Sequence record: PQ571291
DNA length: 50,066 bases
Strand: one strand, 5' to 3'
Origin: Escherichia phage EF3-1
The notes under the pieces were generated by a model. It had not been told where the DNA came from. It saw only the letters and a program-made list of their open reading frames with translations, and did no database searches. Within the stretch, counting starts at the first letter, position 1. Each line of letters begins with the position of its first letter. Made by a program: the position numbers and the translations under genes. Below are positions 32,090 to 32,821 of the stretch, piece by piece.

Positions 32090-32134
32090 ATTATGCCAAA
32101 TCACACCGATCGAGTTTTAACAAAAAGTGCTATT
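32090..32134 (-). promoter_or_regulatory. early-promoter cassette (minus strand) overlapping 3' end of methyltransferase gene
   Basis: Minus-strand AATAGCACTTTTTGTTAAAAC read as ...NSTFC-stop by the upstream CDS; 22-bp spacer; CATAAT; leader TACCTCATCGAAACGAGA. Confidence 0.5.
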
Positions 32135-32821
32135 TGCGATCGCTTTAAAAAATCCCCTGGGCGACAGAGATCGTATCAGTTTTGTTTTGGCAGACTTGCC
32201 GCCTAGCTTGCTGTGCTGTGCAGAGTACCCGTCAGGCAGGCTTACAGGTTTTCTCTCGGGCATGACAAAATCGTCAGAGGTCCAAAGGCAAGTTTTCTTC
32301 GGGTAAGCATCGCGCGGCGCAATATACATCGGGAACCAGGGGTGTGAGTCATTCTCAGGAAGATAGCCGCCATACTCCCAGGGATTGAAGGAGTGATTTG
32401 GTTTTCTCCACGCAGACGACAGGACGCTCACCGGATTCTCAATGATGTAAGTCACGCCCAGGCTATCTCCAATGTTCGCAGCAATCCGGGCAGTAGCGAC
32501 AGCCTTCTCCTGGAACAACGGATCACGTTCACGCTTTCTTGCGAAGTGAGCGGCACCACTAACAGCCAGGTCAGTGCACGGCGGGAAGGCCATAATTAAA
32601 TCCGGCTTGCCATACACGCCAGCGATAGCATCACGCTCAAACACTGCGTCAATGAACACGTTCACATACTCAATGTTCGGATGCTCCACCCGGGCATTGT
32701 ACTTTGCATAATCCCCGTGATCGGCTCCGTCAAAGTTGAAGCACATCACCTTGTGACCTTGCTTAGCCAGTTCATGACCTGCAAGGCCGGAACCGTCGAA
32801 TAGCGACCAGATTAATTTCAT
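32117..32821 (-). CDS. DNA (cytosine-5)-methyltransferase-like protein (short, 234 aa)
   Basis: Motif I LFDGSG (FxGxG), motif IV AFPPCTDLAVSG (PC), motif VI-like IIENPVS; no obvious target-recognition domain; no adjacent endonuclease. Confidence 0.6.
   Translation of the reverse strand: MKLIWSLFDGSGLAGHELAKQGHKVMCFNFDGADHGDYAKYNARVEHPNIEYVNVFIDAVFERDAIAGVYGKPDLIMAFPPCTDLAVSGAAHFARKRERDPLFQEKAVATARIAANIGDSLGVTYIIENPVSVLSSAWRKPNHSFNPWEYGGYLPENDSHPWFPMYIAPRDAYPKKTCLWTSDDFVMPERKPVSLPDGYSAQHSKLGGKSAKTKLIRSLSPRGFFKAIANSTFC

Follow-up and report, generated by a model that had tools for sequence, protein, structure and literature searches.

The 50,066-nucleotide stretch of Escherichia phage EF3-1 analysed here (sequence record PQ571291; the whole stretch is referred to as the window) comes from a T1-like phage of the genus Tunavirus, family Drexlerviridae, and carries on its minus strand a short gene, here called dcm, whose product is best explained as an active, stand-alone C5-cytosine methyltransferase that depends on S-adenosylmethionine (AdoMet) and has CCWGG as its probable target, the overlap of its 3' end with a repeated 18-nt box being incidental. 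We regard this explanation, taken as a whole, as highly probable. It is carried by the conserved catalytic motifs, by family membership established through homologues and by the reported activity of a close relative.

The methyltransferase and its probable target

An earlier note, made from the sequence alone, had described a 234-residue open reading frame (ORF) with the motifs LFDGSG, PC and ENP, had called its product C5-methyltransferase-like, and had pointed out that it is shorter than the classical enzymes and has no obvious target-recognition domain. The ORF and all three motifs are present (PC lies within FPPC), and both the identity and the shortness stand, with only a compact region of about 70 residues found where a recognition domain would be expected. 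The gene and its motifs are the following.

32117-32821, minus strand: dcm-like gene, ATG start, encoding a 234-aa orphan DNA C5-cytosine methyltransferase of the short phage family phrog_757
32786-32803, minus strand: motif I, LFDGSG, residues 7-12, the AdoMet-binding loop, which in homologues aligns to the PF00145 profile from position 4 onward
32573-32587, minus strand: motif IV, FPPCT, residues 79-83, with the catalytic nucleophile Cys82; P81-C82 is the Pro-Cys catalytic dipeptide
32432-32440, minus strand: motif VI, ENP, residues 128-130, with Pro replacing the Val of the canonical ENV
32282-32299, minus strand: KKTCLW, residues 175-180, in the compact conserved region at the position of the target-recognition domain
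32150-32176, minus strand: IRSLSPRGF, residues 216-224, conserved C-terminal motif, motif X-like by our own assignment

The protein matches the phrog_757 profile over nearly its whole length (E 3.5e-83, residues 1-231 against profile positions 14-217 of 247). Membership of PF00145 is transitive: 21 of 32 homologues match this family, with 28.5, 25.4 and 24.7 bits for homologues P0008, P0041 and P0009 against a cut-off of 22, and the query itself stays below the gathering threshold. Together with motifs I, IV and VI, this supports assignment to the C5-cytosine methyltransferase superfamily. The structure model of the 234-aa protein is compact and confident over the whole length, and shows a Rossmann-like catalytic domain with the elements specific to C5-methyltransferases. 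Two large uncultured-phage proteins in BFVD, A0A6J5SE15_1 (1397 aa) and A0A6J5NPY6_2 (1126 aa), contain the short methyltransferase fold as one domain, and one of the two is annotated as helicase/UvrB N-terminal.

Conservation was followed in a first set of 32 homologues and in a second set of 58 diverse homologues at 29-55% identity. Positions G10, S11, G12, P80, C82, E128, N129, P130, K175, T177, W180 and R217 are invariant in the first. In the second, E128 and P130 are again invariant, P80 and C82 are conserved at 90% or more, K175 is retained, and T177 and W180 are conserved as they are in the first; P221, R222 and G223 are at least 90% conserved. The candidate motif VIII (W138-R139-K140) and the candidate motif IX/X (I216-R-S-L-S-P-R-G-F224) are both conserved in homologues, and the latter, IRSLSPRGF, may resemble the 'GRSWSVPV' motif of DNMT3. 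Residues 140-215, which run from motif VI to the C-terminal motif, are few and yet conserved as strongly as the core, and conservation reaches residue 228; this pattern points to a compact DNA-contact region rather than to a missing domain. Such a compact recognition region agrees with the best structural match, DNMT3, which has the smallest recognition region among C5-methyltransferases.

Concerning activity, the most direct evidence comes from a homologue. A preprint on retron Ec86 reports the isolation of escapers of phage K42, a member of the Drexlerviridae with 95.4% genome identity to KarlJaspers; all of them had lesions in a 711-bp dcm gene, and expression of K42 Dcm was toxic only in cells carrying Ec86. 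By LC-MS (liquid chromatography coupled to mass spectrometry) against a 5-methylcytosine (5mC) standard, wild-type K42 Dcm gave high 5mC on the multicopy single-stranded DNA (msDNA) of Ec86, which the C82A/E128A/K175A/K176A mutant did not; K175 and K176 are named there as substrate-binding residues. Changing CCTGG in the msDNA to AATGG, ACTGG or CATGG abolished defence. The role of K42 Dcm as the trigger of retron Ec86 is restated in PMC12916289. We located the 711-bp dcm gene in KarlJaspers, and its product is 55% identical to the EF3-1 protein over 229 aa (E 2e-87). Since an active homologue at this distance has the same catalytic residues, the EF3-1 protein is, by analogy, very probably active. 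A second member of the Drexlerviridae, phage AAS23, has DNA with Dam- and Dcm-type methylation as judged by restriction digestion, and its cytosine methyltransferase gave no conserved domain by BLASTP and an HHpred match to a C5 enzyme.

Several points weigh against this explanation. Pfam and NCBIfam searches with the 234-aa query returned no match even at E <= 1, and searches of the PDB with the single sequence and with two profiles returned no significant match. Comparison with E. coli Dcm gave a BLASTP E of 8 and a single-sequence hhalign probability of 0.3 that covered only motifs I-VI. Formation of 5mC by the family was shown only for the 55%-identical K42 enzyme, from which the present assignment would follow by analogy. 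In the accessible part of the preprint, CCWGG is assumed by analogy with E. coli Dcm and backed by the msDNA mutants, with no methylome mapping, and little methylation of the msDNA was obtained from a dcm+ host alone, a hint that substrate preferences differ. In the BASEL study, methyltransferase genes and restriction resistance were not linked in any simple way in Drexlerviridae. Finally, the module to which the box at the gene's end belongs (see below) appears to be promoter-like and of the extended -10 kind: its box occupies about -51 to -34, a conserved leader follows, and its promoter activity is deduced from this pattern. Two PDB matches, TrwG (E 1.8) and KtrA (E 0.099), were dismissed as noise.

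The hint of a different substrate leads to the idea, possible but unlikely in our judgement, that the short family (about 233 aa, among the smallest natural DNA C5-methyltransferases) follows a substrate rule of its own, within an accessory block that is gained and lost by module recombination. Such a rule could be a hairpin or single-stranded preference, methylation of the outer C or a non-CCWGG site; if true, it would explain why the msDNA is methylated and the retron triggered by the phage enzyme but not by a dcm+ host. Conservation of the minimal recognition segment extends from coliphages to phages of Arthrobacter and Campylobacter. We also think it unlikely that the protein has the fold and chemistry of the family and is no functional equivalent of Dcm, acting on another or a shorter target, preferring single-stranded or hairpin DNA, or using another cofactor, e.g. 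carboxy-SAM. Against this speak the 5mC found by LC-MS on the homologue and the loss of defence with altered msDNA CCTGG, both from the preprint, as well as the Dcm-type digestion pattern of AAS23 DNA. In addition, CCWGG is not avoided in the window, but GGCGCC, CCGCGG, GCCGGC and AGGCCT are strongly avoided, and such avoidance of GC/CG-containing 6-mers speaks against protection of these sites through a very short or relaxed specificity.

The site counts themselves, all for the window, are as follows. CCWGG occurs 94 times against 95.8 expected, and GATC, 248 times against 312 (ratio 0.79), is not or only mildly avoided. RCCGGY is absent, with about 28-33 expected, at 149 occurrences of CCGG, and strong avoidance (observed/expected) is also seen for AAGCTT (1/19), TCCGGA (1/17.5), GGCGCC (0/10.7), CAGCTG (0/10.2), GGATCC (0/9.3), AGGCCT (0/8.6) and GAATTC (0/8.6). 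These statistics are compatible with CCWGG protection. For CCWGG and GATC they are weak evidence, since many hosts methylate both sites themselves.

On the chemistry of the family, the reading of dcm as an active C5-methyltransferase would imply the following course. AdoMet would be bound by motif I (F8-x-G10-x-G12), the target cytosine would be flipped out, Cys82 of FPPC would attack C6 and Glu128 of ENP would protonate N3; after transfer of the methyl group to C5, beta-elimination would free the enzyme. In contacting DNA, the segment 140-215, including K175 and K176, would stand in for a large target-recognition domain, similarly to the situation in DNMT3. Phage and host DNA would thus be methylated, probably at CCWGG, by analogy with the K42/KarlJaspers enzyme. 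Such methylation would blunt 5mC-sensitive restriction, for example by EcoRII-type enzymes, and would make the phage detectable by retron Ec86/Eco1, whose msDNA hairpin is methylated by the homologue.

The earlier note had paired the gene with an orphan Dam and had proposed dual self-methylation against host restriction. The second methyltransferase does exist.

22533-23246, plus strand: orphan Dam, second methyltransferase, PF05869 (E 4.4e-69)

Protective self-methylation against host restriction, the conventional reading, is plausible but unproven. The sole consequence shown by experiment is the opposite of protective, the K42 homologue being the trigger of retron Ec86.

The box at the 3' end of dcm

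The last codons of dcm, which had been described as part of a repeated motif, are indeed supplied by an exact copy of it: 32117-32134 on the minus strand reads AAT AGC ACT TTT TGT TAA, i.e. N S T F C stop. The features concerned are given here.

32117-32134, minus strand: exact box copy AATAGCACTTTTTGTTAA, coding for NSTFC and the dcm stop and serving at the same time as upstream box in the module of the next gene
32090-32095, minus strand: CATAAT, a -10-like hexamer with TGG before it (extended -10), placed exactly 21 nt after the box
31871-32056, minus strand: downstream gene served by the module at the dcm 3' end, 61 aa, DUF7421 (PF24196, E 1.7e-41; phrog_7717)
2981, 19487, 29105, 29605, 31236, 31653, 32117, 33090, 33295, 49141, minus strand: box copies
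6918, 18409, 19951, 22461, 34244, 34981, 36039, 38708, 39228, 40601, 42432, plus strand: box copies
34262-34283, 22479-22501, 39256-39277, plus strand: example spacers with a stem-loop

The window holds 15 box copies at no more than 3 mismatches, where 0.09 are expected and none of 100 shuffles reaches 15; allowing 4 mismatches raises the number to 21, and every copy has the orientation of the local coding strand. A consensus was drawn from 165 distinct exact-box contexts, taken from the window and 120 viral stretches (mostly contigs of about 50 kb). It describes a module of about 65 nt, AATAGCACTTTTTGTTAA-AAC-N16-(t)Gg-TATAAT-N5-CATCGAAACGAA, followed by a purine-rich ribosome-binding region and, 45-70 nt after the box, by the start codon. 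The place of TATAAT is fixed at +22 to +27 after the box, and the G at +20, the extended -10, is present in 140 of the 165 contexts; of the 15 closer window copies, 13 have the hexamer exactly 21 nt after the box. The orphan Dam, for example, starts 55 nt downstream of a perfect copy (22461-22478) with CATTAT as its -10. None of the modules is called by a sigma-70 scanner, which finds no TTGACA-like hexamer 16-18 nt upstream of the -10, and in the absence of a canonical -35 they are read as extended -10 promoters with an upstream box rather than as -35/-10 promoters.

The spacer between box and hexamer is often a GC-rich stem-loop of variable sequence, with a mean minimum free energy (MFE) of -7.6 against -3.5 kcal/mol for shuffles, and an MFE of -5 or lower is reached by 61% of spacers, compared with 5% and 33% for control windows on the flanks. 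The stem is not fixed relative to the -10: either it lies wholly upstream or its arms flank the hexamer, and at the copy that ends dcm the stem is weak (-3.4). Several of these stem-loops are annotated as rho-independent terminators in the T1 and SA12KD records; possible roles of the stem-loop are those of a terminator, of an RNA 3' end or of a DNA structure. A role of CCWGG in spacers as a methylation-dependent switch was considered and dropped, CCAGG being found in 2 of 21 window spacers against about 0.8 expected, which is not significant.

Stop codons are inherent to the box, with TAG at positions 3-5 and TAA at 16-18, and a further TAA can overlap its first As. Upstream ORFs of at least 57 codons are terminated by 14 of the 21 window copies, in all three frames. 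At 26 distinct loci related to dcm, 19 stop at the box TAG, five of Tunavirus type and one variant reach the distal TAA, and one has no box; the 19 that stop at TAG have 39-67% protein identity. The tail after the conserved Arg has 12 residues in both clades (GFFKAIANSTFC vs GFARAVFEANAK), and this equal length with different sequence indicates that the Tunavirus lineage swapped its last residues for box-encoded ones. The gene thus ends inside the box because a tightly packed genome uses a promoter signal to supply stop codons. Of what the earlier note made of the 3' end, the overlap itself is confirmed; rather than belonging to the enzyme as such, it is a by-product of genome compaction and a general packing feature of this phage family.

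A function of the overlap for dcm itself, whether control of termination or of the mRNA 3' end by the box or its factor, or a need of NSTFC for activity, is very improbable. It could draw on the box being at the dcm 3' end in 25 of the 26 loci, variant copies included, down to 39% protein identity, and on 32154-32170, where the coding sequence holds a weak terminator-like hairpin and a T-run shortly before the box. On the other hand, 14 unrelated upstream ORFs of the window, between them in all three frames, are ended by the box; outside Drexlerviridae, the alignment of homologues is limited to residues 3-228 and their tails are unrelated; and terminator-like matches are not enriched in the region, 5 being found where 6.7 are expected from shuffles. 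Furthermore, since the frame of dcm relative to the box differs between clades (TAG vs distal TAA), there is no conserved tail peptide.

With the overlap taken as incidental, the box would act as the upstream element of the next gene's promoter module, and its stop codons would be used by genes upstream. A small 3' rearrangement in the Tunavirus clade would have put dcm in the frame that reads to the distal TAA, exchanging five native C-terminal residues for NSTFC with total length unchanged.

Some further observations concern the box and the end of the gene. The hairpin mentioned above, followed by ATTTTTTAAA, lies within dcm on the minus strand, in codons for RSLSPRGFFK, and its T-run is limited to the Tunavirus clade (RGFFKA), other clades having RGFA-type sequences. 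A second box subtype, AATAGCACGAATTGCTAA, occurs on the plus strand at 18409, 34981, 38708 and 40601 and in SA12KD at 2152 and 5598, and is the version found at the dcm 3' end in distant relatives (about 40% identity). A predicted transcriptional regulator of 174 aa (19487-20011, minus strand; phrog_2856, E 5.5e-76) ends, like dcm, by read-through of a box (AATAGCATTTTTAGTTAA, 19487-19504, minus strand), giving NSIFS and stop, and a second copy at this locus (19951-19968, plus strand) faces the divergent helicase gene. This regulator is a candidate for the factor that recognises the box. A search of the full-text literature for the box sequence or for a Drexlerviridae promoter motif returned nothing relevant, which is no proof that the module is undescribed in T1-like phages; neither transcript-start nor reporter data for it came to light.

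Length of the protein and spread of the family

In a large protein collection, 4,854 homologues were found at E <= 1e-3, the best at 97% identity, and there are 956 cluster representatives at 50% identity. Phage records with a homologue number 1,521, and in 1,363 of them the match extends over at least 80% of the query; the median homologue lengths are 232.5 and 233.5 aa. The sources comprise Drexlerviridae, Dhillonvirus, Kagunavirus, Vequintavirinae, phages of about 120-165 kb in genome size, as well as Klebsiella, Vibrio, Campylobacter and Arthrobacter phages. The enzyme family is already known and widespread, and the gene is already annotated in T1-like coliphages, orthologues having been deposited as 'DNA methylase', 'DNA methyltransferase' and 'Dcm-like C5 cytosine methyltransferase'.

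The suggestion of a truncated enzyme with altered function, made in the earlier note, is not supported by this comparison: length equals the family median, the whole length is conserved and a 55%-identical homologue is reported active. On these alignments the protein is not truncated. That it is the decayed remnant of a full-length C5-methyltransferase, inactive or serving a non-enzymatic purpose such as DNA binding or a decoy, is scarcely credible: its 234 aa are about 100 fewer than the 327-330 aa chains of M.HhaI or M.HaeIII and the query matches neither Pfam nor NCBIfam, but the length is that of the median relative, clear purifying selection has kept all catalytic residues invariant, the structure model is confident and compact from end to end, and a 236-aa homologue is reported in the retron preprint to be catalytically active in dependence on C82, E128, K175 and K176.

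What the enzyme adds beyond correct annotation is little, as the activity of the family and its triggering of retron Ec86/Eco1 are already published. One prediction is that Tunaviruses carrying dcm should be sensitive to retron-Eco1 hosts such as BL21; as T1 has no dcm, this prediction does not extend to T1. It should also be noted that the name 'Dcm-like' overstates present knowledge, because the recognition sequence of the minimal enzyme is not mapped at base resolution in the sources consulted.

Gene neighbourhood, accessory block and known systems

The transcription unit to which dcm belongs and its surroundings comprise the following features.

32818-33030, minus strand: upstream 70-aa ORF (orf70), phrog_16851, of unknown function, whose TGA overlaps the dcm ATG as ATGA
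33063-33107, minus strand: degenerate module upstream of orf70-dcm, with box AATAGCATTTTTTGCAAC (33090-33107), a 21-nt spacer, TATGAT (33063-33068) and a CATCAA leader
31254-33049, minus strand: accessory block of about 1.8 kb with orf111, orf61, the DUF7421 gene and orf70 plus dcm, absent from T1; box copies at 31236, 31653, 32117 and 33090 delimit its sub-units

The overlap of the orf70 stop with the dcm start makes co-transcription and translational coupling of the two genes probable. The dcm ATG is preceded, at 8 nt, by a Shine-Dalgarno-like AAGAGG, and given the homologues and this ribosome-binding signal the ORF is a genuine gene. The degenerate module is the probable promoter of the unit, judging from its layout, and dcm would be the second cistron of orf70-dcm in leftward transcription from it; this module is homologous to the T1 module at 48735-48752, which precedes T1 gene ST1. 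The best canonical sigma-70-like promoters of the neighbourhood lie in an AT-rich divergent intergenic region at 33327-33655, with TAGACA-18-TATAAT, TTGTCA-17-TAGAAT and TTGACA-17-CACAAT on the plus strand and TTGTCA-18-AATATT on the minus strand; this is probably the early divergent control region. An Rfam scan of 29000-36500 gave nothing at E <= 0.1.

The ORFs flanking dcm have 70, 61, 61 and 111 aa and belong to PHROGs of unknown function or to DUF7421. The earlier note's remark that there is no partner endonuclease is borne out, as domain and PHROG assignment reveal none among these small ORFs, and the upstream one is not conserved with KarlJaspers. With no adjacent cognate endonuclease, the methyltransferase is an orphan rather than part of a restriction-modification system. 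A role of orf70 as a conserved partner or specificity subunit was rejected, since it is not similar to the ORF that precedes dcm in KarlJaspers.

Comparison with T1 shows how the block is set into the genome. T1 47001-48752 aligns to window 29505-31253 and T1 48694-389 to window 33050-33567, and the overlap of both T1 alignments is exactly the 59-nt module; since the two alignments meet at the module, the window carries about 1.8 kb of extra genes relative to T1. No dcm was found in T1 by tblastn, and T1 has 13 box copies. In SA12KD (compared region 1737-2587), the orf61 and DUF7421 units are missing and two other small genes are present instead, the indels at window 31672-32135 and SA12KD 1754-2112 being flanked by box copies. 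The breakpoints of gene presence and absence against both phages thus fall exactly on module copies. A module-bounded block present here and absent from T1 is the pattern that would be expected if the methyltransferase were gained or lost by recombination between modules. The box is best read as part of a promoter module and as a recombination junction. This reading assists the annotation of transcription units in Drexlerviridae and helps to explain the mosaic small-gene arms of this family.

Concerning known systems, the motif, not the enzyme, resembles the promoter-early stem-loops (PeSLs) of T4-like phages, composite promoter/terminator repeats that mediate modular gene shuffling (PMC2839356, PMC4122927): in both cases short repeated promoter-like modules bound small accessory genes, and indel breakpoints lie on the repeats; the stem-loop, frequent but variably placed in the present module, may be a further likeness. 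Sequence, phage family and architecture are, however, unrelated, the present module having an 18-nt box, a 21-nt spacer and a putative extended -10.

Among close relatives, Escherichia phage CLB_P3 matches the 3-kb neighbourhood at 96.8% identity, and the Shigella Sfin phages, SA12KD and LeonhardEuler match it at 90-95%. The GenBank Tunavirus proteins (CLB_P3, Sfin-1 to Sfin-6, SA12KD_55, named 'DNA methylase', and LeonhardEuler bas13_0055, named 'Dcm-like C5 cytosine methyltransferase') have 94-99% identity, equal length and the NSTFC tail, and only the content of the flanking cassettes differs among these phages. The nearest characterised enzyme is Dcm of K42/KarlJaspers Bas06 (QXV82308.1), the trigger of retron Ec86 (Retron-Eco1), with 236 vs 234 aa and with C82, E128, K175 and K176 at identical positions. 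In KarlJaspers, dcm likewise lies in a leftward small-gene arm and likewise has the box at its 3' end. The two phages differ in subfamily, Tempevirinae for KarlJaspers and Tunavirinae for EF3-1, and the ORFs upstream of dcm are unrelated; the KarlJaspers gene ends with GCA AAA TAG inside the box (tail ...FEANAK), whereas that of EF3-1 reads on to TAA (tail ...ANSTFC).

E. coli Dcm (M.EcoKDcm, 472 aa, CCWGG) carries out in principle the same reaction, and motifs I, IV and VI align in hhalign; a CCTGG site is the reported target of the phage homologue. In contrast to it, the phage protein has half the length, lacks a Dcm-type recognition domain and lacks a vsr partner, which adjoins the host dcm. 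Orthology was rejected, there being no significant similarity by hhalign or BLASTP, and 'Dcm-like' is therefore a functional label. Finally, the catalytic domain of mammalian DNMT3A/DNMT3B has 14-16% identity to the phage protein, a likeness of fold and not of family below the superfamily, and the DNMT3 enzymes, being eukaryotic, oligomeric and CpG-specific and having regulatory domains, are otherwise unlike it.

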